Part shown: one piece after another, positions 3,572-54,655 of the stretch
How the letters are laid out: every line of letters starts with the position of its first letter
Position numbering within the stretch: the first letter of the stretch is position 1
Source of the DNA: Thermoplasmatota archaeon
Lineage (GTDB): Archaea; Thermoplasmatota; E2; UBA202; DSCA01
DNA: 64,000 nt
Direction of reading: 5' to 3'
Assembly: GCA_046498345.1 (NCBI GenBank)
Contig: JAWOAW010000017.1
Location: 526-64,525 of the forward strand
Notes under the pieces: model-generated
What the model saw: only the letters and a program-made list of their open reading frames with translations
What the model was told of the DNA's origin: nothing
Databases searched by the model: none
Made by a program: the position numbers and the translations under genes

Positions 3572-4344
3572 AGGCGCCGGCCATCGAAGCCCGGGAGCTC
3601 ACCATCACCCGGTCCGGCTCCCCGGTCATCACCGACGCATCGTTTACCATCAACCAGGGCGACTACGTGGGTATGGTCGGGCCCAACGGCGGCGGCAAGA
3701 CCACCCTGCTGCAGGCGCTCCTCGGCATCATCCCTGCAGCCAGCGGCTCCATCCGGCTGTTCGGCCAGGACAAAAAAACGTTTTCCGACTGGGAGCGCAT
3801 CGCCTACGTGGCGCAGGACGCCATCAACTTCGACGCGTCGTTTCCCCTGACCGTCAGGGAGCTCACCGGGCTGGGCCGCATCACCCGCGACCGGCTGGGG
3901 CGCCCCCTGCGGCGGGAGGACTGGCACGCGGTTGACGAGGCGCTCGGGCTCATGGAGATGGACAGCCTGGCAGACCGGCGTATCGGCCGCCTGTCGGGAG
4001 GCCAAAAACAGCGGGTGTTCGTGGCCAAGGCGCTGGTCCGTGACCCGGAGATTCTGCTGCTCGACGAGCCGGTCACCGGCGTCGACGCAGACACGCAGAA
4101 GCGGTTTTACAAGAAGCTCAGCGACCTGAACGCCGAGTGTGGCCTCACCGTCGTCATCGTGTCGCACGACCTGGCGGCCGTTTTTTGCCGGATGTCCAAG
4201 GTGATGTGCGTCAACCGGGACGTCTACGTCGCGGATATCACGGACGACCTGGAGCCCAACGAGATACTCAGGGAGGTCTACGGCGACCATTTCCATTTCG
4301 TGTTCCACCGACACGAATGCACGGGGGTGTTCGCCGATGAGTAG
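3568..4344 (+). CDS. Metal ABC transporter ATP-binding protein (ZnuC/TroB-like)
   Basis: Walker A GPNGGGKTT, ABC signature LSGGQKQR, Walker B LLLDEP. The ATG at 3568 overlaps the stop of the upstream SBP gene (ATGA). The long N-terminal extension of ORF 2629-4344 is rejected. Confidence 0.9.
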   Translation: MKAPAIEARELTITRSGSPVITDASFTINQGDYVGMVGPNGGGKTTLLQALLGIIPAASGSIRLFGQDKKTFSDWERIAYVAQDAINFDASFPLTVRELTGLGRITRDRLGRPLRREDWHAVDEALGLMEMDSLADRRIGRLSGGQKQRVFVAKALVRDPEILLLDEPVTGVDADTQKRFYKKLSDLNAECGLTVVIVSHDLAAVFCRMSKVMCVNRDVYVADITDDLEPNEILREVYGDHFHFVFHRHECTGVFADE

Positions 4345-5161
4345 CCTGACGCTCCTGGACCTGCCCCGGCTGCTCGGCTACCAGTTTTTCCAGCATGCGC
4401 TGGTCGGCGGGCTCATCACGGCGCTGGTCTGCGCCTGGGTCGGCTTTTTCCTCATCCTGCGGCGGGAGACCATGATCGGGGACGGCATCGCGCATACCGC
4501 CTTCGGAGGTATCGCGCTGGGACTGCTCCTGCATGTCAACCCGCTGCTGACCGCCTGGGTGGTATCCACGCTGGCCGTGGTCACCATTGCCTACATGCGG
4601 CGGAAGGGCATCGCTCATTCCGATGCGGCCATCGCGGTGATGCTGGCCATCGGGTTCTCCGGGGGCCTCATCATCATCAGTCTGGCCGGCGGCTTCAACG
4701 TCGAATTGTTCAGCTACCTGTTCGGGTCCATTCTCACCATCGACCAGACCGACCTGGTCATCGTGTCCGGTCTGGGCATGGCCGCGGCGCTGTTCTTGGG
4801 CATCTTTTACAAGGAGCTGCTGTCCATCACGTTCGACGAGGAATCCGCCAGGCTGATGGGCATCCCGGTGACGCCGTTATCGGTGGGCTTCCACGTACTG
4901 GTGGCCACCACGATAACGCTGTCGATCAAGGTCATCGGCATCATCCTCGTCGTCGCCTTGATTGTCCTGCCCGGCCTGACGGCGCTGCAGCTCGACCTGT
5001 CATTCCGGCGTACCACGATGGCGGCCGTCGGTGTCGGCCTGCTCTCCATGTTCCTGGGCATCTCGCTCTCAGCCGTCTACGACGTGGCGACCAGCGGGGT
5101 TATCGTGTTCACCGCCGCCGGGCTCTTCCTCTTCGCCGCCCTGTACCGGAGGCTGTCATGA
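4337..5161 (+). CDS. Metal ABC transporter permease (ZnuB/TroCD-like)
   Basis: 274 aa polytopic membrane protein typical of cluster-9 metal ABC permeases. It overlaps the ATPase gene by 8 nt. Confidence 0.9.
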   Translation: MSSLTLLDLPRLLGYQFFQHALVGGLITALVCAWVGFFLILRRETMIGDGIAHTAFGGIALGLLLHVNPLLTAWVVSTLAVVTIAYMRRKGIAHSDAAIAVMLAIGFSGGLIIISLAGGFNVELFSYLFGSILTIDQTDLVIVSGLGMAAALFLGIFYKELLSITFDEESARLMGIPVTPLSVGFHVLVATTITLSIKVIGIILVVALIVLPGLTALQLDLSFRRTTMAAVGVGLLSMFLGISLSAVYDVATSGVIVFTAAGLFLFAALYRRLS

Positions 5162-5583
5162 CCCGGCGGAAACGGGAAAACCGGCAGGCTCGGGTGGTGT
5201 CCATGAGCATCCCCGCCGAGATGGACGAGGCCATCAGCGCGGCAGCGGCGGACATGGGATACCGGAGCCGGTCGGCGTTCGTCCGCGATGCAGTGCGAGC
5301 CCTGCTCAGGGAAAAAGCCGGCCTGGACGGGCGCCGGGGTACCGTGGAGGGAGTCATCACCCTGCTCTACGAGCATGACGCCGCGGCCCAGGTATCCACA
5401 ATCCGCCACCGGCACATGGACATCTTCCGGAGCTTCATGCACTCGGATTTCGATGCCGCCGCCTGCTCATGCTGCGAGGTGCTCATGTTCTCCGGGGACA
5501 TCGAAGATGTCAGCGCCGCATACCATCGACTCAGAGCGATAGACGGCGTCGACGAGGCACACATCTACGTGGCCTCCCGGTAA
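5158..5583 (+). CDS. nikR: NikR-family nickel-responsive regulator (RHH N-domain plus ACT-like metal-binding C-domain)
   Basis: N-terminal RHH (RVVSMSIPAEMDEAIS..GYRSRSAFVRDAVRALL). C-domain carries NikR His/Cys ligand positions (TLLYEHD...IRHRHMD...HSDFDAAACSCCEVLMF). ATGA overlap with the permease stop. Confidence 0.7.
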   Translation: MTRRKRENRQARVVSMSIPAEMDEAISAAAADMGYRSRSAFVRDAVRALLREKAGLDGRRGTVEGVITLLYEHDAAAQVSTIRHRHMDIFRSFMHSDFDAAACSCCEVLMFSGDIEDVSAAYHRLRAIDGVDEAHIYVASR

Positions 5584-46542: not shown

Positions 46543-46740
46543 ATGCCGATCGTCGAGATAAAGGTATGGGAAGGATTTGGAGCGGACAACGCACGGCAGG
46601 TCATCGAAGAGGCAACCGCGATGTTCGAGCGCAGGGGCATCCCCCCTGAAGCGGTCGAGGTCGTGGTCACCGAGGTACCGAAGACGCATTGGGGCATCGG
46701 AGGGATGCCTGCTTCGAAACGGTTTGCGGGAGAGGACTGA
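46543..46740 (+). CDS. 4-oxalocrotonate tautomerase family protein
   Basis: 65 aa beginning MPIVEIKVWEG (catalytic Pro1 context). GGGAGGAGG RBS-like element upstream. Confidence 0.7.
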   Translation: MPIVEIKVWEGFGADNARQVIEEATAMFERRGIPPEAVEVVVTEVPKTHWGIGGMPASKRFAGED

Positions 46741-46742
46741 CC

Positions 46743-47621
46743 ATGTTCGGCAGCAAAGAAAAGGTCATGGAGAAGGTCAAAGGCCTGCCGTCCGGGGAGC
46801 CGTCGCCCTCGGGACGATACTGGTGTGTGACCTGTAAAAAGCTGTTCCGGCTGGACGAGCCGCGGTGCCCCTATATGCCCAGGATGTGTCTTAACACGCC
46901 CGTCGCCGTTGAAAACCTGCCGCCGGAGACAACGGAGGGGCTGGAGCGTTTCGGGCTGTTCTACCCGAAGATACCGCAGCGGCTGGCCGCGAGACTGATG
47001 CCGGACGGCGTGGAAGAAATCGCCGAGGGATGGGCCGACGGCTACCTTGCATTTCTAGAGGACTGGCACATCCATTACGAAAAGCAGCCATTGCAAACCC
47101 TGAAGAGCTTTATTATCATAGCCAGCGGATGCGAAACCGCACAGCGCGTCGGTGCCGATGCTATTACCTTCGTGGTCATGGACGCGGGTACGGTCTGGGA
47201 CCGGGATGTGCTGTTCAGGCTCCTGGAGCATGCGGTACCCCGTCTGGCTTCGCAGCTCGGGATTTCGAGGCGGATACGATTCGACGACGTAGCCATCCTG
47301 GGTGACAGCCCGATGGGACGGTATTTCTGTCCGATGTGCCAGAAATTTTTCGAATTTTCATTCCAGCGGGAGACGATTACCTGTCCATTGATGCCACAAA
47401 AATGCATGGCCACGCCGCGGGATATAAAGGACATCGATACGTCGGTTGAAGGTCTCGTGCACATGTACCAGGTGACGCCTGGTATCTACCGTCGATTTAT
47501 CGGGCTGTTGCCCGGTAAAGAAAACGGAAAGCAGATGGTGCGCGAAATGCTTGAAGAAGACTGGAATCTGTCCGTTGATGACGCAGTACTGGAGAAGATA
47601 TCGACGCTGCTGGGGATGTAG
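46743..47621 (+). CDS. Hypothetical protein with an internally duplicated Cys motif (two copies of CxxC...CPxMPxxC.xTP)
   Basis: YWCVTCKKLFRLDEPRCPYMPRMCLNTP (N-terminal) and YFCPMCQKFFEFSFQRETITCPLMPQKCMATP (about 180 aa later). Start at MFGSKEK, 3 nt after the tautomerase stop. Confidence 0.5.
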   Translation: MFGSKEKVMEKVKGLPSGEPSPSGRYWCVTCKKLFRLDEPRCPYMPRMCLNTPVAVENLPPETTEGLERFGLFYPKIPQRLAARLMPDGVEEIAEGWADGYLAFLEDWHIHYEKQPLQTLKSFIIIASGCETAQRVGADAITFVVMDAGTVWDRDVLFRLLEHAVPRLASQLGISRRIRFDDVAILGDSPMGRYFCPMCQKFFEFSFQRETITCPLMPQKCMATPRDIKDIDTSVEGLVHMYQVTPGIYRRFIGLLPGKENGKQMVREMLEEDWNLSVDDAVLEKISTLLGM

Positions 47622-47691
47622 CGACGCGATTGCGTGGGCGCAGATGATCCTCCCGGATGGCTGGCGGCCACCGTACGAAGACACCATTCTT

Positions 47692-47760
47692 ATTTCAAAA
47701 TAAGTTTAAATGAAAAAGCTTTTATACCTGCCCGACATACCATTTCAAAATAGGTTGAAA
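47692..47760 (+). promoter_or_regulatory. Two operator-like repeats (ATTTCAAAATAAGTTTAAA at 47692-47710 and ATTTCAAAATAGGTTGAAA at 47742-47760) flanking a TATA box (GCTTTTATACC at 47717-47727) upstream of the ars island
   Basis: Direct repeat of a 19-mer, each with an internal TTCAA-N7-TTGAA imperfect palindrome. The second copy sits where the transcription start is expected. Confidence 0.5.
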
Positions 47761-47770
47761 CAGTGATGCC

Positions 47771-48853
47771 ATGATGGAAATAGCCCAGGCCGGCATCGAC
47801 ATGCTGGCAAGCTACCTGTCCGAGCACGTGCTCACCTGCCTCATCCCGGCGTTTTTCATAGCCGGGGCCATCGCCGCCTTCGTCTCAAAGCAGAGCATCC
47901 TCCGATACTTCGGGGCGCAGGCCAAAAAATACGTCTCCTATTCCATCGCATCCGTCTCAGGGGCCATCCTGGCGGTCTGCTCGTGCACCGTCCTTCCCTT
48001 GTTTGCAGGCATCTACAAGCGTGGGGCGGGCATCGGCCCAGCATCGGCCTTCCTGTACTCCGGGCCAGCGGTCAACGTCCTGGCCATCGTGCTCACCGCC
48101 CGGATACTCGGCTGGCAGATGGGCGCCGCCCGGGCTCTCGCCGCCGTGACGATGGCCATCGTCATCGGGCTCGTCATGGCAACTGTGTTCAAGCAGCATG
48201 ACCGTGACACACAGTCCAACCCCGACTTCCAGTACCAGGCGAGCGACGACGACGAAAAACGGTGGCCGTCGCTCACCGTCTTCGTTGCCCTCGTCGCCAT
48301 TCTGGTTGTTGCGACCACCGGCATCTCCTGGATGACCAAGTTCCCCATCATATATGCGCTCACCATCCTCATCGCCGTCCTCCTCATATTCTACTACAGC
48401 CGGACGGAGGTCAAAGAATGGGGCAGCCAGACCTGGTTCCTGACCAAGCGCATTTTCCCCGTTCTGCTGGGCGGCGTGTTCCTGGTCGGCGTCATCGGCG
48501 GCGTCGCAGCGCAGTTCGTCGATGCGCCGGCGGAGGAAGCGGTCGGCGTGCTGGTCAAGGACTACATCGGCGGGAACAGCCTCACCTCCTGCTTCACCGC
48601 ATCGGTCATCGGCGCCGTGCTGTACATGCCGACGCTGCTGGAGGTTCCCATCGTCAACGACCTGTTCGGCTTTGGCTCTGGTATCATGGGAGCCGGACCG
48701 GCGCTGGCATTGCTCCTCGCCGGGCCCTCGCTGAGCCTGCCCAACATGGTGGTCATCGTCCGGGTGATGGGGCTCCGGAAGGCCGGGGTATACATTTTCC
48801 TGGTCGTCGTCATCTCAACCCTGGTGGGATACCTGTACGGAGGAATAGCATGA
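47771..48853 (+). CDS. ArsP-like (DUF318) permease
   Basis: Multi-TM permease with the conserved VCSCTVLP motif (cf. ArsP TPFcSCS..P). First gene of the ars cluster. Confidence 0.7.
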   Translation: MMEIAQAGIDMLASYLSEHVLTCLIPAFFIAGAIAAFVSKQSILRYFGAQAKKYVSYSIASVSGAILAVCSCTVLPLFAGIYKRGAGIGPASAFLYSGPAVNVLAIVLTARILGWQMGAARALAAVTMAIVIGLVMATVFKQHDRDTQSNPDFQYQASDDDEKRWPSLTVFVALVAILVVATTGISWMTKFPIIYALTILIAVLLIFYYSRTEVKEWGSQTWFLTKRIFPVLLGGVFLVGVIGGVAAQFVDAPAEEAVGVLVKDYIGGNSLTSCFTASVIGAVLYMPTLLEVPIVNDLFGFGSGIMGAGPALALLLAGPSLSLPNMVVIVRVMGLRKAGVYIFLVVVISTLVGYLYGGIA

Positions 48854-49245
48854 AGAAGTGTTGTTCTCTGGAAAACATAGATGTAGAGATCCCCGACATA
48901 ATCGAGCGGGAAATGGAAGCAAAGGGCGGCTTCGATGAGATATACCGGTCGCTGGCGAAGCATGACACGATGGCGATGGCCACCATGACAAAGGTGCTGG
49001 GCGACGAGAAACGGCTGACGATGCTCCTGGCGCTGGCCCGGCAGCGGATGTGCGTCTGCATGCTGGCGGAGCTGACCGGCTGCACCTACTCGAAATGCTC
49101 CTATCACATCGCCAGGCTAAAAGATGCCGGGCTGATAGAGCCGGAGCATCTCGGCAATTATCTCATCTACTCGCTCACCTCCCACGGTCGGGAGATAGTC
49201 GTCCTGCTGGAAAAAATATACGAAGCGGAGGAAAACCATGGATGA
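48850..49245 (+). CDS. arsR: ArsR/SmtB family arsenite-responsive repressor
   Basis: HTH with the classic As(III)-binding CVC motif (RMCVCMLAELTGC) and an N-terminal KKCC. ATGA overlap with the permease stop. Confidence 0.8.
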   Translation: MKKCCSLENIDVEIPDIIEREMEAKGGFDEIYRSLAKHDTMAMATMTKVLGDEKRLTMLLALARQRMCVCMLAELTGCTYSKCSYHIARLKDAGLIEPEHLGNYLIYSLTSHGREIVVLLEKIYEAEENHG

Positions 49246-49462
49246 AACGGCCAAAGAACTAGCTGGCATAGCGGCCTCGATAGCCGGGCACTGCCGCCCG
49301 TGTTTTAGACATCATTTGAAGAAAGCAAAAGAGCTGGAGGTGCCAATGGATGACATCAATGAAGTAGTTATGTTTGCCAGAGACATCAGTGCAGCAGGCG
49401 ACGAGAAAATGTACGCCTTTGCATCCAAGCGCCTGCAACAAAAAAGAGGTGAAAACATATGA
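49238..49462 (+). CDS. Small AhpD-like (carboxymuconolactone decarboxylase family) protein
   Basis: 74 aa with the CxxC-H core (GHCRPCFRHH). Confidence 0.55.
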   Translation: MDETAKELAGIAASIAGHCRPCFRHHLKKAKELEVPMDDINEVVMFARDISAAGDEKMYAFASKRLQQKRGENI

Positions 49463-49827
49463 AAAAGATAGGCATACTGCCCTGCTCGGGGGCCTGCAAC
49501 GTGGGGATGCTGTCCACGAAGACGGTCGTACAAACGCTTGATGAAAGAGAGAATACAGATTTCGTCTGCGCCCTAGGACTCCCCCTGGGCATCGAAGGCA
49601 TCATACATCAGGGAAAAAGCAGCGACGGCTACATCGCGCTCAACGGCTGCCCGGTCAAATGCGCGAGCAAGGCACTCAAAAGCGCGGACATACCAGTCGA
49701 CAAAGAAATAGTCATCACCGAACGATATGGCATAAAAAAGAACAAGAATCTAAACAGCGAAGAAAAACTGGAGGACATCATAGCCGAGGTGAAGCGAATG
49801 GTTGATGAGATGCAAAAAGATAGCTAG
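49459..49827 (+). CDS. DGC-domain putative metal/zinc-binding protein
   Basis: ILPCSGACNVG N-terminus and ALNGCPVKCASKA (the DGC-motif region). Confidence 0.55.
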   Translation: MKKIGILPCSGACNVGMLSTKTVVQTLDERENTDFVCALGLPLGIEGIIHQGKSSDGYIALNGCPVKCASKALKSADIPVDKEIVITERYGIKKNKNLNSEEKLEDIIAEVKRMVDEMQKDS

Positions 49828-49843
49828 ATACAATGAGGAAAAA

Positions 49844-50083
49844 ATGAAGATAGAGATACTGGGAACCGGCTGCCCGAAATGCCGGTCAACGGAAAAAATG
49901 GTCAGGCAGGTCGTCGACGAGCTCGAGATGGACGTCGATATACAGAAAGTCGAAAGCATCGAGCAGATCATGGAGCGCGGGGTCATGATGACGCCCGCCG
50001 TGGCCATCGACGACGACATCAAAATCGTGGGACACGTGCCCGGAAAGGAGGAACTCACACGGCTGCTGGAGGAGGCCGGATAA
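49844..50083 (+). CDS. Thioredoxin-family small protein (redox-active disulfide protein 2 type)
   Basis: MKIEILGTGCPKC ... PAVAIDD. CxxC is CPKC. Confidence 0.75.
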   Translation: MKIEILGTGCPKCRSTEKMVRQVVDELEMDVDIQKVESIEQIMERGVMMTPAVAIDDDIKIVGHVPGKEELTRLLEEAG

Positions 50084-50084
50084 C

Positions 50085-50405
50085 ATGCGGCTGCTGGAGG
50101 AATGGTTCCCCGAGTTCGCCGGAGAACTGGACAAGATAGACGAGCTCTACCGGGAAAAACGAATGATCGACGAAAAAACCTACCAGTTCATCTGCTTCGC
50201 CCTGGCCATCCGCGGCCGGTCGGCACCCTGCGTCCGGAAGCACTTCAAGGCAGCGCTGGAGGCCGGCGCCACGCTCAAGGAGCTGGCGTACATCATGGCC
50301 CTGGTGTTCAGGGAGAGCGCGGGCAACGACGACTGCTGGGTCCACGACGTCCTCGACGACTACACGGAATTGATGAAAAACAATGTCCGATGCTGCCCGG
50401 AGTAG
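50085..50405 (+). CDS. Carboxymuconolactone decarboxylase family protein (AhpD-like)
   Basis: 106 aa: FICFALAIRGRSAPCVRKH (CMD core). Confidence 0.6.
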   Translation: MRLLEEWFPEFAGELDKIDELYREKRMIDEKTYQFICFALAIRGRSAPCVRKHFKAALEAGATLKELAYIMALVFRESAGNDDCWVHDVLDDYTELMKNNVRCCPE

Positions 50406-50412
50406 CGATAAC

Positions 50413-50820
50413 ATGAAGACGCTAGAAATAGAATGGCGGCATCTCGAGTTGGACGGCAGCACATGCATCCGCTGCTCCGGGACGGGGCAGAGCCTGCAGC
50501 AAGCCATCGCGGAGCTGGAAAAGGAGCTGCAGCCGCGGGGCGTCGAGCTGTCGTTCACGGAGACGACACTGCCGGAGGAAAAGCTCCCTCAGTCCAACCT
50601 GATTCTCATAGACGGCCAGCCGCTCGATGACGTTCTTGCCGGTGCAGAATCCGGTGAAAACTATTGCTCGTCGTGCTCCTGCCTGACCGGCAGAGACGCA
50701 TACTGCAGGACGGTATCCTACGACGGGGAAACATACGAGGAGATACCCGAGGAAATCATCCGGGAGGCGGTCTTCACCGCGCTGGACATGGACCCCGCCG
50801 GGGAGGAGACGAAAACATGA
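50413..50820 (+). CDS. DUF2703-like Cys-rich protein
   Basis: CIRCSGTG and CSSCSC motifs. Start at MKTLEIEW. Confidence 0.45.
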   Translation: MKTLEIEWRHLELDGSTCIRCSGTGQSLQQAIAELEKELQPRGVELSFTETTLPEEKLPQSNLILIDGQPLDDVLAGAESGENYCSSCSCLTGRDAYCRTVSYDGETYEEIPEEIIREAVFTALDMDPAGEETKT

Positions 50821-51353
50821 AACACCTGGCAGCCATCCTCATAGCGGTGCTCCTCCTGGCCATGATGGGCGGCTGCCTGGAAGATAATGGAGGCAGCTCG
50901 TCCGACTACACGATAACCCATTCCGTCGGGACGGGAAGCACCGACTTCTGGACGGGATATCCCGCGGGGCATCCACGCAGCGGGGAGAACATTTCTCATC
51001 CCCAGTGGGTGCACGACAGGCTGGAAGATAGACCCCTGCTTATCCTGGCGCACAGCACCGACTGCCAGCCCTGCATCGTACAGCAGTCGGACCTAGAAGC
51101 GGTGCTCCCAGACTACCGGAACCAGATAGAATACGTGGACCTTCTGACCGACGGCAGCGACCCCCGGGCCATGGACGTCTACAACACCTATTACCCTCGG
51201 AGCGGACAATGGTACATCCCGCTCACCGTCCTCGTCTCCCGGGCATCCGTCGAGGGAGAGCAAACAATCATCTGGCACGGCAAGGTGAGCACCACCGGCA
51301 AGGACTGGCTGCGCACCTACATCGAGGATGCCATCGCATACTATGAAGGATAG
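50817..51353 (+). CDS. Secreted thioredoxin-fold lipoprotein (TlpA/ResA-like thiol-disulfide oxidoreductase)
   Basis: Signal plus lipobox-like LAMMGGC; CQPC active site (HSTDCQPCIVQ). ATGA overlap with the upstream gene. Confidence 0.6.
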   Translation: MKHLAAILIAVLLLAMMGGCLEDNGGSSSDYTITHSVGTGSTDFWTGYPAGHPRSGENISHPQWVHDRLEDRPLLILAHSTDCQPCIVQQSDLEAVLPDYRNQIEYVDLLTDGSDPRAMDVYNTYYPRSGQWYIPLTVLVSRASVEGEQTIIWHGKVSTTGKDWLRTYIEDAIAYYEG

Positions 51354-51357
51354 AAAC

Positions 51358-52701
51358 ATGAAGACAAAGAACATCGTTATTCCCGTTGCCGGTCTCGTTG
51401 CCGTTCTTGCCCTCATCGTCCTGCCGACGCTTTCCCATGGAGAAGAGTTTTCCCCGGCCCCTGATTTCACGGCTGAAGCCGTGGACGGCCGGACGTTCTC
51501 GCTGAATGAGAGCCAGGGCAACGTGACCATCCTGCACGTGCAGAACTTCGAGAACCCCATCTGCATCGAATGCGAAAAAGAGCTCCGCGGGCAGATAGAG
51601 GCGCTGGCTGATCTGTCGGCAATGAGCCACGGCAATCTCTCCATCGTGACGCTCAACCTCCGCAAAAATCCCTCCTCCGACGACGGCAAAACGCTGGCCG
51701 AGCGCTGGTACGATATAAACGTGAGCTGGTACTGGATAGAGGAGGAAGCACCCTACCAGGTGGCCGACGACTACCGGGAATATTGGACCGTGGACGGCGC
51801 CTTCGCCAACCCTACCCTCATATTAATCGGTCCCTCGCTGGACGTCATGGGCGTCTACCACGTCTACCGGATGGGAGCCGGGAAACTGGACGGCGTTCAG
51901 CCGGCGACGTCGCTGGCCGACGACGTCGAACAGATATTACAGGGAAACTGGACGACCTTCAAGGGAGAAACGAGCAGCCGGGACATCACCTTCCTGGGCA
52001 TGTTCGGGCTGGGCGTCATCACCGCGCTTTCCCCCTGCTCCATTGCCCTGCTCATCTCCATGATATCCTACGTGGGAGCAACGGCGAGTGGCACGGGAAC
52101 CAAGAGGGAGAGCTTCCGGGGGTTTGGCATGGGCGTGGTCTTTACGCTGGGGATGGCCCTGGTGTTCTTTTTCATCGGGCTGCTGATCTCGTATGCCGGA
52201 TTTTTCGTGGAGATGTCCTCTCTGTTTTATCTCATCGCCGGAGCCATACTTTTCATCTTAGGCGTCAACATCGTGTACCCGTTGAAGGATATGCTGGCAC
52301 CGCTCCTAAAAAAGAGGGACGGTGGGCAAAACATCATGGAGAAAGGCGGACGAGTCTTTGAAAGCCTGAGTAAAAGGTCGCTCGTTCTCGGCGCCTTTTT
52401 CCTGGGCATTCTTTTCGCCGTTGGATGGGCGCCCTGCGCCATCTCGCTGGTCATGCCCGTGTTCATCCTGGTGCTGGCTCAGAAGACGTCGCTGCTGATG
52501 GGTGGTCTGCTGCTCTTCGTGTTCGGCCTCGGGCACGGCGTGCCCGTCATCCCGCTCACCACGCTGACCAGGGGTATGCGCGCCAGGGTGGGAAACGCCT
52601 ATGTGACGGCCGGCCGCTACATCCAGAAGATATTCGCCGTGGCCATCCTGATCATCGCGGTGGTGTTCATGCTCCGCTACTTTGGGATACGGTTGTGGTA
52701 G
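51358..52701 (+). CDS. Fusion of a periplasmic thioredoxin-like domain (CIEC) with a CcdA/DsbD-type transmembrane thiol-disulfide transporter domain
   Basis: N-terminal signal anchor plus TlpA-like domain (FENPICIECEKE). C-terminal 6-TM domain with the two conserved Cys (ALSPCSIALL and GWAPCAISL). Confidence 0.75.
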   Translation: MKTKNIVIPVAGLVAVLALIVLPTLSHGEEFSPAPDFTAEAVDGRTFSLNESQGNVTILHVQNFENPICIECEKELRGQIEALADLSAMSHGNLSIVTLNLRKNPSSDDGKTLAERWYDINVSWYWIEEEAPYQVADDYREYWTVDGAFANPTLILIGPSLDVMGVYHVYRMGAGKLDGVQPATSLADDVEQILQGNWTTFKGETSSRDITFLGMFGLGVITALSPCSIALLISMISYVGATASGTGTKRESFRGFGMGVVFTLGMALVFFFIGLLISYAGFFVEMSSLFYLIAGAILFILGVNIVYPLKDMLAPLLKKRDGGQNIMEKGGRVFESLSKRSLVLGAFFLGILFAVGWAPCAISLVMPVFILVLAQKTSLLMGGLLLFVFGLGHGVPVIPLTTLTRGMRARVGNAYVTAGRYIQKIFAVAILIIAVVFMLRYFGIRLW

Positions 52702-52767
52702 GAAAAGAGAGGTGATTGCATACCTGATGAAAAGCTGGGTTTTTTTGAGCGGTATCTGAGCCTCTGG

Positions 52768-53763
52768 GTGGCACTGTGCATCGTTGCTGGCGTTGTTATT
52801 GGAACAGTGTTTCCCTGGTTCCCGGACATGCTGGACGGGCTGCAGTATGCACGGGTGTCGCTGCCCGTCGCCGTATTGATATGGCTGATGATATACCCCA
52901 TGATGGTCCGGGTGGATTTTTCGAGCATTCTCGAGGTCACCCGGAAGCCGCGGGGGCTGCTGGTTACCTGGGTGACCAACTGGCTGATAAAGCCATTCAC
53001 CATGTACCTGTTTGCGCTGCTGTTCTTCACATATGTATTTGCCGACTTTATCAGCCCGTCGCTGCAGGACCAGTACATCGCGGGGGCCGTGTTTCTCGGG
53101 GCGGCGCCCTGCACGGCCATGGTGTTCGTGTGGAGCTATCTGAGCAGGGGCGATGCGAGCTACACGCTGGTGCAGGTGGCCAGCAACGACCTCATCATCC
53201 TTGTCGCCTATGTCCCCATCGTGTCGTTTCTCCTGGGCATCAGCGGGCTATCTGTGCCCTATGACACGCTGGTGCTCTCCGTGGTATTGTTCGTGGTCAT
53301 CCCGCTCGCGCTGGGCTACCTCACTCGAACATGGGCGCTGAAGCGCAAAGGCAAAGCATGGCTGAACCGCGTATTCCTCCGGCGGATGCACACGGTCACC
53401 ATCATCGGGCTGCTGCTCACCCTGGTCATCCTGTTTTCGTTCCAGGGCGAGAAAATCCTTGACAACCCGCTGCACATTGCGCTCATCGCGGTGCCGTTGA
53501 CCATCCAGACCTACGTCATCTTCGGGCTGGCCTATGGCTGGAGTTTCCTCTGGCATTTGCCGCATCGCATCGCTGCGCCGGCGGCGATGATCGGGGCCAG
53601 CAATTTTTTCGAGCTGGCCGTGGCGGTCGCCATCTCCGTCTACGGGCTGGGCTCGGGAGCGGCGCTGGCCACCGTGGTCGGCGTGCTGGTGGAGGTCCCC
53701 GTCATGCTGAGCCTGGTCGCCGTGGCCAATCGGACCCGCGGCCGGTTCAGGGAGGATGTATGA
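52768..53763 (+). CDS. acr3: ACR3-family arsenite efflux transporter, with its 5' end disrupted or shifted at a T7 homopolymer
   Basis: ACR3 signatures throughout (LWVALCIVAGVVIG, MIYPMMVRVDF). The in-frame codons upstream of the GTG at 52768 read EKLGFFERYLSLWV, with no start codon. The only ATG (52727) is in the +1 frame and reads MKSWVF before a stop. Confidence 0.8.
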   Translation: MALCIVAGVVIGTVFPWFPDMLDGLQYARVSLPVAVLIWLMIYPMMVRVDFSSILEVTRKPRGLLVTWVTNWLIKPFTMYLFALLFFTYVFADFISPSLQDQYIAGAVFLGAAPCTAMVFVWSYLSRGDASYTLVQVASNDLIILVAYVPIVSFLLGISGLSVPYDTLVLSVVLFVVIPLALGYLTRTWALKRKGKAWLNRVFLRRMHTVTIIGLLLTLVILFSFQGEKILDNPLHIALIAVPLTIQTYVIFGLAYGWSFLWHLPHRIAAPAAMIGASNFFELAVAVAISVYGLGSGAALATVVGVLVEVPVMLSLVAVANRTRGRFREDV

Positions 53764-54146
53764 AAAAGATATTGTTCGTCTGCGTGGAAAACGCCTGCCG
53801 CAGCCAGATGGCCCAGGGGTTCTGCACCGCGCTGGCCGACGATGTCGAAGCGGAGAGCGCCGGCACGCAGCCGGCCGAGGAGGTGGATGATATCGCTGTA
53901 GCGGTCATGGCGGAGGCAGGCGTCGACATTTCCGGGCAGCGGCCGACGGCGATGACGGGGGAGATGAACGACCGGTTTGACATTATTGTGACGATGGGTT
54001 GCACCGATGGCTGTCCGATAACACCGAAGGAGAAAACCGTCGCCTGGAGCATTGAGGACCCGCGTGGTAAACCCGCCGGGGTCTATCGCAGGGTCAGAGA
54101 TGACATCCGGTGGCACGTTGAGCGGCTGCTTGCCGACATCCGCTAG
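53760..54146 (+). CDS. arsC: Arsenate reductase ArsC (LMW-PTP, thioredoxin-coupled type)
   Basis: CX5R P-loop ILFVCVENACRSQMA and downstream Cys (GCTDGCPI). ATGA overlap with acr3. Confidence 0.85.
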   Translation: MKKILFVCVENACRSQMAQGFCTALADDVEAESAGTQPAEEVDDIAVAVMAEAGVDISGQRPTAMTGEMNDRFDIIVTMGCTDGCPITPKEKTVAWSIEDPRGKPAGVYRRVRDDIRWHVERLLADIR

Positions 54147-54655
54147 CTTTTTTCTCTGTCGCGCAGCCCGAGGATAATCTCTGCGGTCCACCGGGCGACG
54201 TCGGCTGCCACCTGCGGGCAGGTGTCCCGTGATGCATGATCGGAGAAGGCTGCGGCTTCATCTGCGTCGAGCAAGTCATATGTCCGTCCTAACACCTGCT
54301 GCTGCACGTCGCGGCAGACCGGAGACCCGTATTTTTTTGTGAAGCGGCTGTAGAGCCGCTGGCTGTGGACGAACACCCGTCGCTCTCCCTTTCCGGCTTT
54401 GAAGTCCTCGTAGCTTCTGCCCAGCACGGCGCCGATGGCCAGCATCCCACCGGCGAGGGCGCCGCAGGTGCCAGCCGTGGACAGCGCCGCTCCCCCGGCG
54501 AGGCCGTCGCTGGCCTGGATGACCTCGGGGCCGGCTATCCCGAGTGTTTCGTGGAGCGCTGCCAGGACACACTGGGGGCAGCTGCCGATGGTATGTTCGT
54601 ATTCTCTGGCGAGCGCTGCGGCTTTTCCAACTGGGCTGTGCTCGTCCGATGTCAT
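54143..54655 (-). CDS. C_GCAxxG_C_C family putative redox-active protein
   Basis: GSCPQCVLAAL ... AGTCGALAGGMLAIG ... CRD, the hallmark C/GCAxxG/C/C arrangement. Confidence 0.7.
   Translation of the reverse strand: MTSDEHSPVGKAAALAREYEHTIGSCPQCVLAALHETLGIAGPEVIQASDGLAGGAALSTAGTCGALAGGMLAIGAVLGRSYEDFKAGKGERRVFVHSQRLYSRFTKKYGSPVCRDVQQQVLGRTYDLLDADEAAAFSDHASRDTCPQVAADVARWTAEIILGLRDREKS

Follow-up and report, generated by a model that had tools for sequence, protein, structure and literature searches.

Thioredoxin- and CcdA-type genes of arsenic resistance (ars) operons reportedly received the names ArsE, ArsF and ArsG from Chen, Zhang & Rosen in 2019 (Environ Sci Technol 53:6182), and the NCBIfam names 'MTH895/ArsE family' (TIGR00412) and 'ArsG' (NF040495) follow that ArsEFG naming. 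Here we describe genes of this kind in an uncultured archaeon of the phylum Thermoplasmatota, in a stretch of 64,000 nucleotides (the window; contig JAWOAW010000017.1 of assembly GCA_046498345.1), where eleven genes on the + strand span positions 47771-54146. Our reading, which we hold with moderate confidence, is that these genes form an ArsR-repressed arsenic or metalloid operon in which classical detoxification is joined to a set of cytoplasmic cysteine proteins and to an outward-facing, DsbD-like thiol relay, the latter made up of a lipoprotein and a thioredoxin-CcdA membrane fusion. For any particular physiological substrate our confidence is much lower than for this overall picture.

Accessory genes of this type are already known from bacteria. 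CcdA, Trx and Trx_3 genes have been recorded in bacterial ars operons in eight instances from seven organisms, and a possible transmembrane electron flow has been discussed for them (PMC2963123). An earlier reading of this locus, made from the sequence only, had taken such thiol chemistry to be undescribed for an ars operon; this is not so, given these bacterial genes, the ArsE and ArsG models of NCBIfam, and the presence of DUF2703 in a Rhodococcus ars cluster (PMC6514093). Like the window, the bacterial operons with ArsEFG-type genes encode a Trx_3-family protein, a further thioredoxin and a CcdA/DsbD-type membrane protein beside arsR, arsC and an arsenite pump. The archaeal locus nevertheless differs from them in several respects: its thioredoxin is fused to the N-terminal side of CcdA behind a signal anchor, and is therefore predicted to face outwards; it adds, as an obligate partner, a lipobox thioredoxin of an unmodelled family; its CcdA core fails the cut-off of the ArsG model (54.7 versus 200 bits); and, in an archaeal host, AhpD-like, DGC and DUF2703 genes are added to the set.

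Two other bacterial arrangements resemble parts of the locus. In Rhodococcus aetherivorans BCP1, the cluster arsR-acr3-arsC2-arsC3-DUF2703-arsO, like the window, has a DUF2703 gene with a CxxC motif beside acr3 and an arsC of the low-molecular-weight protein tyrosine phosphatase (LMW-PTP) type, and it is induced by arsenate (PMC6514093). Unlike the window, the BCP1 cluster has no CcdA, no outward thioredoxins, no ArsP and no Trx_3 block, and its DUF2703 gene is a separate transcript; DUF2703 itself was classed as thioredoxin-like in 2010 (PMC3091736). The second arrangement is the ArsR-permease(PF03773)-Trx_3 cassette of anaerobic bacteria, exemplified by plasmid pILYOP01 of Ilyobacter polytropus, the families and gene order of which match the upstream half of the archaeal module. 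Beyond the families of this three-gene cassette, the archaeal module has AhpD-like, DUF2703 and DGC genes and the outward relay, and it often includes arsC and acr3 as well. On pILYOP01 (locus L088) the cassette occupies 3677-5234, and a Citrobacter plasmid (L087) carries the permease and Trx_3 at 4010-5222; neither has other ars genes. A Trx_3 match is present on 137 plasmid records, mostly from Citrobacter, Klebsiella and Enterobacter, and the contexts inspected were those of L087 and L088.

The membrane fusion can also be set beside DsbD, DipZ and ScsB and beside the CcdA-ResA and CcdA-Etrx relays. It shares with all of these a CcdA core with one cysteine in each of two transmembrane (TM) helices, together with an extracytoplasmic CxxC acceptor of the ResA/TlpA/Etrx2 fold, and the pneumococcal Etrx system resembles the window pair further in having a lipoprotein as thioredoxin partner (PMC3914529). 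It departs from DsbD-type relays in domain order, with an N-terminal thioredoxin domain followed by a six-TM core and no DsbD alpha domain, and in setting: the archaeal pair is found in ArsR-operator-linked clusters with arsenic genes, and not with cytochrome c or Msr genes. In the searchable literature, the coverage of which is incomplete, we found no account of the archaeal outward ResA-like-CcdA architecture, the lipoprotein partner family, the operator or the Thermoplasmatota-wide association. It is the archaeal version, with its lipoprotein family, that is undescribed in the literature searched, and not the accessory type as such; for its physiological role we offer a proposal below.

Homologues of the fusion number more than 900 and are about 450 amino acids (aa) long. 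Nearly all come from Thermoplasmatota, with some from Hadarchaeota, Methanotrichaceae and a Jordarchaeum metagenome-assembled genome (MAG). Four cysteines, namely the CxEC pair and the TM cysteines of the PCS and PCA motifs, are invariant both among 12 and among 64 aligned sequences. The open reading frame (ORF) of the window protein is open from 51328, and homologues begin at its MKTK methionine. Judged by hydropathy and charge, the protein consists of a short positive N-terminus, an N-in signal anchor, an acidic domain of 190 residues (30 D+E versus 12 K+R) and six membrane helices; the K/R-rich loops of these helices alternate, obeying the positive-inside rule, and on these two properties the acidic domain is predicted to lie outside.

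The N-terminal domain of the window protein scores below the Pfam cut-off for AhpC-TSA (18.6 versus 26 bits); among 12 members of the family, nine match AhpC-TSA and six match Redoxin. An AlphaFold model of the fused domain has a predicted local distance difference test (pLDDT) score above 90, and a Foldseek search with it returned ResA, pneumococcal Etrx2, CcmG/DsbE, TlpA and the C-domain of DipZ, all with probability 1.0 and with TM-scores on the target of 0.72-0.80. As modelled, the fused domain is a ResA/TlpA-type thioredoxin fold, predicted to face outwards. The tag 'TlpA-like' had previously been attached to the CQPC lipoprotein, which is the wrong protein of the two; Foldseek and the Pfam matches of family members both assign the ResA/TlpA likeness to the domain that is joined to CcdA. 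A tblastn search of plasmids with the CcdA core gave generic CcdA matches only (~30% identity) and was uninformative. With an N-in anchor, an acidic and predicted outward ResA-like domain, a six-TM core and four invariant cysteines, it is likely that, as the sequence-only reading proposed, two of the genes serve to move reducing equivalents to an extracytoplasmic thioredoxin.

The partner lipoprotein belongs to a small and sharply bounded family, with 181 members found at E <= 1e-3 by HMMER among 1.84 billion cluster representatives; no Pfam domain is carried by the members. Positions G38, P49, H61, H79, C83, C86, Q89, Y125, T137, W153 and H154 are invariant, and the lipobox G19-C20 is nearly so. 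The protein is a generic thioredoxin fold in which no specific similarity to TlpA or ResA was detected, and no structural match was found for its conserved N-terminal extension of 35 residues, which is rich in His and Trp. With its lipobox and thioredoxin fold, it is likely to be the extracytoplasmic thioredoxin partner that had been suggested. We surveyed gene neighbourhoods by tblastn of the eleven window proteins on 80 genome loci, and took counts on the 54 non-redundant loci that have at least 5 kb of upstream sequence. The lipoprotein gene adjoins the fusion gene in 53 of these 54 loci.

The pair lies within a tightly packed set of genes (Table 1) in a window with a GC content of ~0.6. 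Of the ten junctions between the eleven genes, four are ATGA overlaps and one is an overlap of 8 nt; the other five are gaps of 1, 4, 7, 16 and 18 nt. The earlier statement that most junctions are ATGA overlaps was slightly overstated, as four of ten are, whereas its point that the packing is operon-like stands. A ribosome-binding site of the GGAGG/GAGGT (Shine-Dalgarno, SD) type is found ahead of each internal gene and none ahead of the first, and the + strand of 47600-54200 has only one TATA-like element, in the A/T-rich upstream region. The packing, with gaps of at most 18 nt, the SD sites before all internal genes and the one promoter candidate support the prediction that the eleven genes are a single ArsR-repressed polycistronic operon, in agreement with the single transcription unit proposed earlier. 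The gene that follows runs towards arsC and overlaps its stop codon, and we therefore take arsC as the last gene of the operon. Pfam and NCBIfam models confirmed all of the gene families that had been named, with the exception of the CQPC lipoprotein, for which there is no model. All of the named cysteine motifs were found again when the sequences were re-read, except that the second AhpD-like protein has SAPC and lacks a CxxC.

Table 1. Promoter elements and genes of the predicted operon, with the gene that follows it; positions are those of the window.
Feature	Position	Strand	Description
Operator-like site O1	47693-47710	+	TTTCAAAATAAGTTTAAA; one mismatch to TTTCAA-N6-TTGAAA; upstream of TATA-like element
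Archaeal promoter candidate	47713-47727	+	A-rich AAAAAGC resembling a B recognition element (BRE), then TATA-like TTTTATAC at 47720-47727
Operator-like site O2	47743-47760	+	TTTCAAAATAGGTTGAAA; perfect palindrome, between TATA-like element and arsP ATG
arsP-like permease	47771-48853	+	PF03773 ArsP_1, 237 bits (cut-off 32.3); ~9 hydrophobic segments; C70-S-C72
ArsR/SmtB repressor	48850-49245	+	HTH_5/NF033788, 64.2 bits (cut-off 55); N-terminal CC (C4, C5), helix-3 CVC (C68, C70)
AhpD-like 1 (CMD), 74 aa	49238-49462	+	35 bits (cut-off 23); CRPC-x3-H (CRPC-FRH-H)
DGC-domain Cys-rich protein, 122 aa	49459-49827	+	PF08859, 83.8 bits (cut-off 27)
Cytoplasmic Trx_3 thioredoxin	49844-50083	+	PF13192, 90 bits; TIGR00412 'MTH895/ArsE family', 101.3 bits (cut-off 62); CPKC
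AhpD-like 2 (CMD), 106 aa	50085-50405	+	CMD, 25.1 bits (cut-off 23); SAPC, DDCW, C-terminal CCPE
DUF2703 thioredoxin-fold protein	50413-50820	+	131.5 bits (cut-off 23.6); CIRC and CSSCSC
Lipobox (MMGGC) thioredoxin-fold protein, 178 aa	50817-51353	+	CQPC; no Pfam or NCBIfam match
Fusion: signal anchor, ResA/TlpA-like domain (CIEC), 6-TM CcdA/DsbD core	51358-52701	+	PF02683 DsbD_TM, 50.1 bits (cut-off 27.1)
ACR3 arsenite efflux permease	52720-53763	+	TIGR00832, 391.7 bits (cut-off 282.8); model positions 1-327 of 327
LMW-PTP arsenate reductase ArsC	53760-54146	+	LMWPc, 78.6 bits; P-loop C8-VENAC-R14 (C8-x5-R), C81, C85; no signal peptide
C_GCAxxG_C_C Cys-rich 'putative redox-active' protein	54143-54655	-	Convergent; 4-nt overlap with arsC stop

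The promoter region carries two operator-like sites, O1 and O2, which are the sole matches to TTTCAA-N6-TTGAAA in the 64 kb when one mismatch is allowed (expected number 0.06). From its position, O2 should overlap the transcription start. The counterpart of O1 in a relative, L007, is a perfect palindrome; the TATA-like element of the window aligns with TTTTATAT and TTTATATA of L007 and L008, respectively; O2 and the TATA-like element are conserved in two close relatives; and the O1-TATA-O2 arrangement is present also in the distant loci L075 and L084. We counted 16 exact copies of the palindrome in 83 related loci (1.19 Mb), where 0.29 would be expected from shuffled sequences, and 15 of the 16 copies lie no more than 61 nt from the start of an ArsR or ArsP homologue. 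In six loci (L054, L071, L077, L079, L084 and L086) the lipoprotein-fusion pair is preceded, on its own strand, by an ArsR homologue whose start lies within 6 nt of the motif. A divergent arm is present in addition in five of these loci, consisting of arsP-Trx_3-acr3 in L071, L077, L084 and L086 and of Trx_3-acr3 alone in L079; L054 has none. This comparative evidence, which is silent on the inducer, argues strongly that the palindromes are a predicted ArsR-type operator at a single promoter.

The products of the remaining genes fit a scheme of cytoplasmic reduction and export to differing degrees. ArsC, a cytoplasmic protein, is the sole arsenate reductase among the operon genes, and falls below the cut-offs of both the thioredoxin-coupled family TIGR02691 (77.4 versus 174.3 bits) and the glutaredoxin-coupled family TIGR02689 (90.8 versus 157.6 bits). 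Compared with the As(III) site CVCDLC of R773-type ArsR, the window repressor has the CVC but no third cysteine at +3; its pattern of an N-terminal CC and a helix-3 CxC is conserved in homologues. The cysteines C70 and C72 of the permease we take to be the vicinal TM-helix pair that has a role in ArsP.

Among the small cytoplasmic proteins, AhpD-like 2 is the most conserved protein of the module, being 77-88% identical to homologues in genomes with GC contents of 0.30-0.43, where third codon positions are saturated (0.23-0.46 identity), while its neighbours are only 50-65% identical. SAPC is present in all close homologues in place of a catalytic CxxC, DDCW and the C-terminal CC are invariant, and the protein matches CMD proteins of the PDB at E 1.5e-5. 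Such constraint is unusual for a protein of 106 aa. We found no solved structural relative of the DGC protein, and a literature search on DGC-domain proteins and arsenic yielded nothing relevant. In L001, the closest relative, where the fusion is 89% identical to that of the window, genes for DUF169, a second DGC protein, DUF5714 and an LplA-like ligase are inserted between Trx_3 and DUF2703 (L001 3366-6665); therefore, the cytoplasmic part of the operon is modular.

From these families, cysteines, folds and gene arrangements we infer the following scheme. ArsR would repress the operon by binding at the sites placed around the TATA element and the transcription start, and a thiophilic metalloid would release it. 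In the cytoplasm, the LMW-PTP ArsC would reduce As(V) using the small thioredoxin, after which As(III) would be exported by ACR3, and trivalent (organo)arsenicals by ArsP. The Trx_3/ArsE-like protein, the two AhpD-like proteins, the DGC protein and the DUF2703 protein would probably keep both ArsC and the membrane relay supplied with reducing equivalents; more speculatively, the thiols of these small cytoplasmic proteins may in addition serve to buffer As(III) or to chaperone it. The CcdA core would take electrons from a cytoplasmic thioredoxin and pass them through its two membrane-embedded cysteines to its own outward CIEC domain, from which they would reach the CQPC lipoprotein, other surface thiols, or both. 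The purpose of the relay may be, again speculatively, to keep extracytoplasmic cysteines reduced, or to free them from As(III), during the efflux of thiol-reactive As(III) species; protection of surface thiols was among the candidates of the sequence-only reading.

Comparison of gene neighbourhoods indicates that the link between the fusion and ars genes, first noted beside acr3 and arsC in the window, is no local accident. ArsP or Trx_3 is encoded in the same-strand cluster in 31 of the 54 loci, ACR3 or ArsC in 17, and ACR3 lies anywhere within 10 kb in 20. Homologues with 89%, 68%, 58% and 54% identity all have ars-type genes nearby, in varied order: L002 has acr3-lipoprotein-fusion-arsC-nitroreductase, L005 has arsR ... 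arsC-lipoprotein-fusion, and L004 has several copies of Trx_3, DGC and CMD genes with two SBF/ACR3-like genes. A nitroreductase-family gene comes directly after arsC in this cluster of a 68%-identical relative (L002 4054-4656 and L003 3722-4324), and recalls the nitroaromatic-arsenical theme of ArsEFG. The pair also occurs by itself. Around five such lone pairs the neighbouring genes are unrelated, except that a rhodanese-domain protein is encoded beside two of them; in these two loci, both from Methanotrichaceae, it is the immediate divergent neighbour (L065 7842-8900 and L069 7830-9047, - strand). Taken together, the neighbourhood counts and the lone pairs show that the pair is an autonomous two-gene module that has been repeatedly recruited into an operon centred on ArsR, ArsP and Trx_3, to which, as judged from these gene orders, acr3 and arsC are frequently attached.

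Several observations weigh against an arsenic-linked electron relay. The pair stands alone, with no ars gene, in 13 of the 54 loci (mostly Methanotrichaceae), and can therefore work outside an arsenic context. In some loci the block that leads from ArsR and ArsP to the pair has neither acr3 nor arsC nearby; an example is L006, with the order arsR-arsR-arsP-CMD-Trx_3-CMD-DGC-DUF2703-lipoprotein-fusion. The CC and CxC of ArsR also resemble those of Cd/Pb-type sensors, so that the sequence does not prove arsenic to be the inducer; the PF03773 family includes exporters of Cu and Zn; and the function of the bacterial CcdA-like ArsG is, according to its NCBIfam name, efflux of aromatic arsenicals and not electron transfer. 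Finally, the acr3 gene of this genome lacks a canonical start codon.

Most of these points would be expected if the set ArsR-ArsP-Trx_3-AhpD-DUF2703-DGC-lipoprotein-fusion were a general module for soft-metal or thiol stress (for example Cd, Pb, Cu, Sb, sulfane sulfur or oxidants), which acr3-arsC has merely joined in some genomes and of which arsenic is not the primary substrate. Besides the lone pairs, many other loci have ArsP or Trx_3 without ACR3 or ArsC, and bacterial plasmids bear ArsR-permease-Trx_3 cassettes without other ars genes; relatives within PF03773 include the Cu/Zn exporter SO_0444 and SaoE, and the CC and CxC of the regulator are compatible with Cd/Pb-type sites. However, ACR3 and ArsC recur near the pair at the frequencies given above, and the gene orders of L002 and L005 interleave the pair with acr3 and arsC. 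In the NCBIfam family NF041537 an AhpD-like domain is fused to arsenite methyltransferase, and DUF2703 is induced by arsenic in Rhodococcus (PMC6514093). We consider a general module of this kind unlikely.

A different question is what the CcdA-like core does. Instead of conducting electrons, it might export trivalent (aromatic or methyl) organoarsenicals as a permease of the ArsG type, with the outward thioredoxin domains binding the exported arsenical or handing it off. The ArsG model, which is described as an 'aromatic aminobenzylarsenical efflux permease', aligns with the core over essentially its full length (positions 4-222 of 225); an ArsE-family Trx_3 protein is co-encoded; L002 and L003 have a nitroreductase gene after the cluster; and some homologues of the fusion are annotated in source databases as TauE/SafE exporters. 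Nevertheless, the ArsG score is near that of the generic DsbD_TM match (50 bits), so that the match is not specific to ArsG, and an invariant pair of membrane cysteines together with a fused outward ResA-like CxxC domain is the hallmark of the electron-transferring proteins DsbD, DipZ and ScsB. We therefore regard a permease role as rather improbable.

Of the same doubtful standing is a more far-reaching idea, in which the lipoprotein and the ResA-like-CcdA fusion would make up a hitherto unrecognised archaeal system, under the control of ArsR, for dealing with arsenicals on the outside of the membrane. The CxxC of the lipoprotein, framed by invariant His and Trp residues, could for example capture trivalent (methyl)arsenicals or let them go, or could repair surface thiols that As has bridged, and would be regenerated by electrons brought in through CcdA, with the SAPC/CC AhpD-like protein as a dedicated cytoplasmic partner. 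We put it forward only tentatively.

We give very little credence to the view that the pair is a housekeeping system for cytochrome c maturation (CcdA/CcmG-ResA) or for general envelope disulfide reduction that stands beside ars genes by chance. The fold of the fused domain is closest to ResA and CcmG/DsbE, and archaeal ccmG-ccdA pairs are known in Methanosarcina, but ccmG and ccdA are dispensable for cytochrome c in M. acetivorans (PMC9084895). Moreover, no heme-handling protein with a WWD motif was found in the whole of the 64 kb, the pair is associated with ArsP, Trx_3, ArsR, ACR3 and ArsC repeatedly, in different phyla and different gene orders, and six loci have an operator-bearing ArsR homologue ahead of the pair in the same orientation. 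Extracellular reduction of arsenate or of pentavalent organoarsenicals, which the sequence-only reading had suggested on seeing two outward CxxC proteins within an ars operon, is hardly credible either, as no outward-facing arsenate-reductase fold is encoded, ArsC has no signal sequence, thioredoxin folds alone are to our knowledge not known to reduce arsenate, and As(III) made outside the cell would be counter-productive for resistance.

The coding sequence of ACR3 calls for comment, since no canonical start codon is found at its conserved N-terminus. At 52720 the window reads ATA, and the aligned codon of both L007 and L008 is ATG; the SD sequence GAGGTGAT is intact 7 nt upstream of this ATA, and the next in-frame start, GTG at 52768, would delete the conserved KLGFFERYLSLW at the beginning of TM1. 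From this alignment, translation apparently starts at ATA 52720; a weak non-canonical start, loss of the start codon by mutation and an error in the MAG consensus are all conceivable explanations. We rejected two other explanations. The fusion and ACR3 share a reading frame with a single TAG between them, which might suggest amber read-through or a pyrrolysine-containing fusion of the two proteins; all 64 homologues of the fusion, however, end in ...LW, and therefore the TAG at 52699 is the true stop of the fusion gene. The relatives, furthermore, stop with TAA or TGA, and the ACR3 gene of L008 is in a different frame. A frameshift at the T7 run, making use of the out-of-frame ATG at 52727, was likewise discarded, as the in-frame reading matches the relatives residue for residue and ATA 52720 aligns with their ATG.

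Two genes that flank the operon were also noted. The convergent gene for a C_GCAxxG_C_C protein holds the matching position in L001 and may encode an eighth thiol protein associated with the island, although its membership is uncertain. Directly upstream of the promoter, a 310-aa ORF (46689-47621) encodes two zinc-ribbon-like repeats of the form CxxC...CPxMPxxC and has no Pfam or NCBIfam match; an unannotated gene of 292 aa is found at the equivalent position in L001.

Arsenic resistance is usually pictured as a purely cytoplasmic reduction followed by efflux, and the CcdA and thioredoxin genes of bacterial ars operons have so far been interpreted in one of two ways, as aids to ArsC or as a permease (ArsG). 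What the archaeal locus adds to this is incremental and introduces no new principle. It does offer handles that can be tested, in the form of a compact unannotated protein family, a conserved operator and an unusually constrained AhpD-like protein. The covalent placement of a thioredoxin outside the CcdA core, together with a dedicated surface lipoprotein, argues for extracytoplasmic thiol chemistry in the arsenic or metalloid response of anaerobic sediment archaea, among them Thermoplasmatota, Hadarchaeota and Methanotrichaceae.

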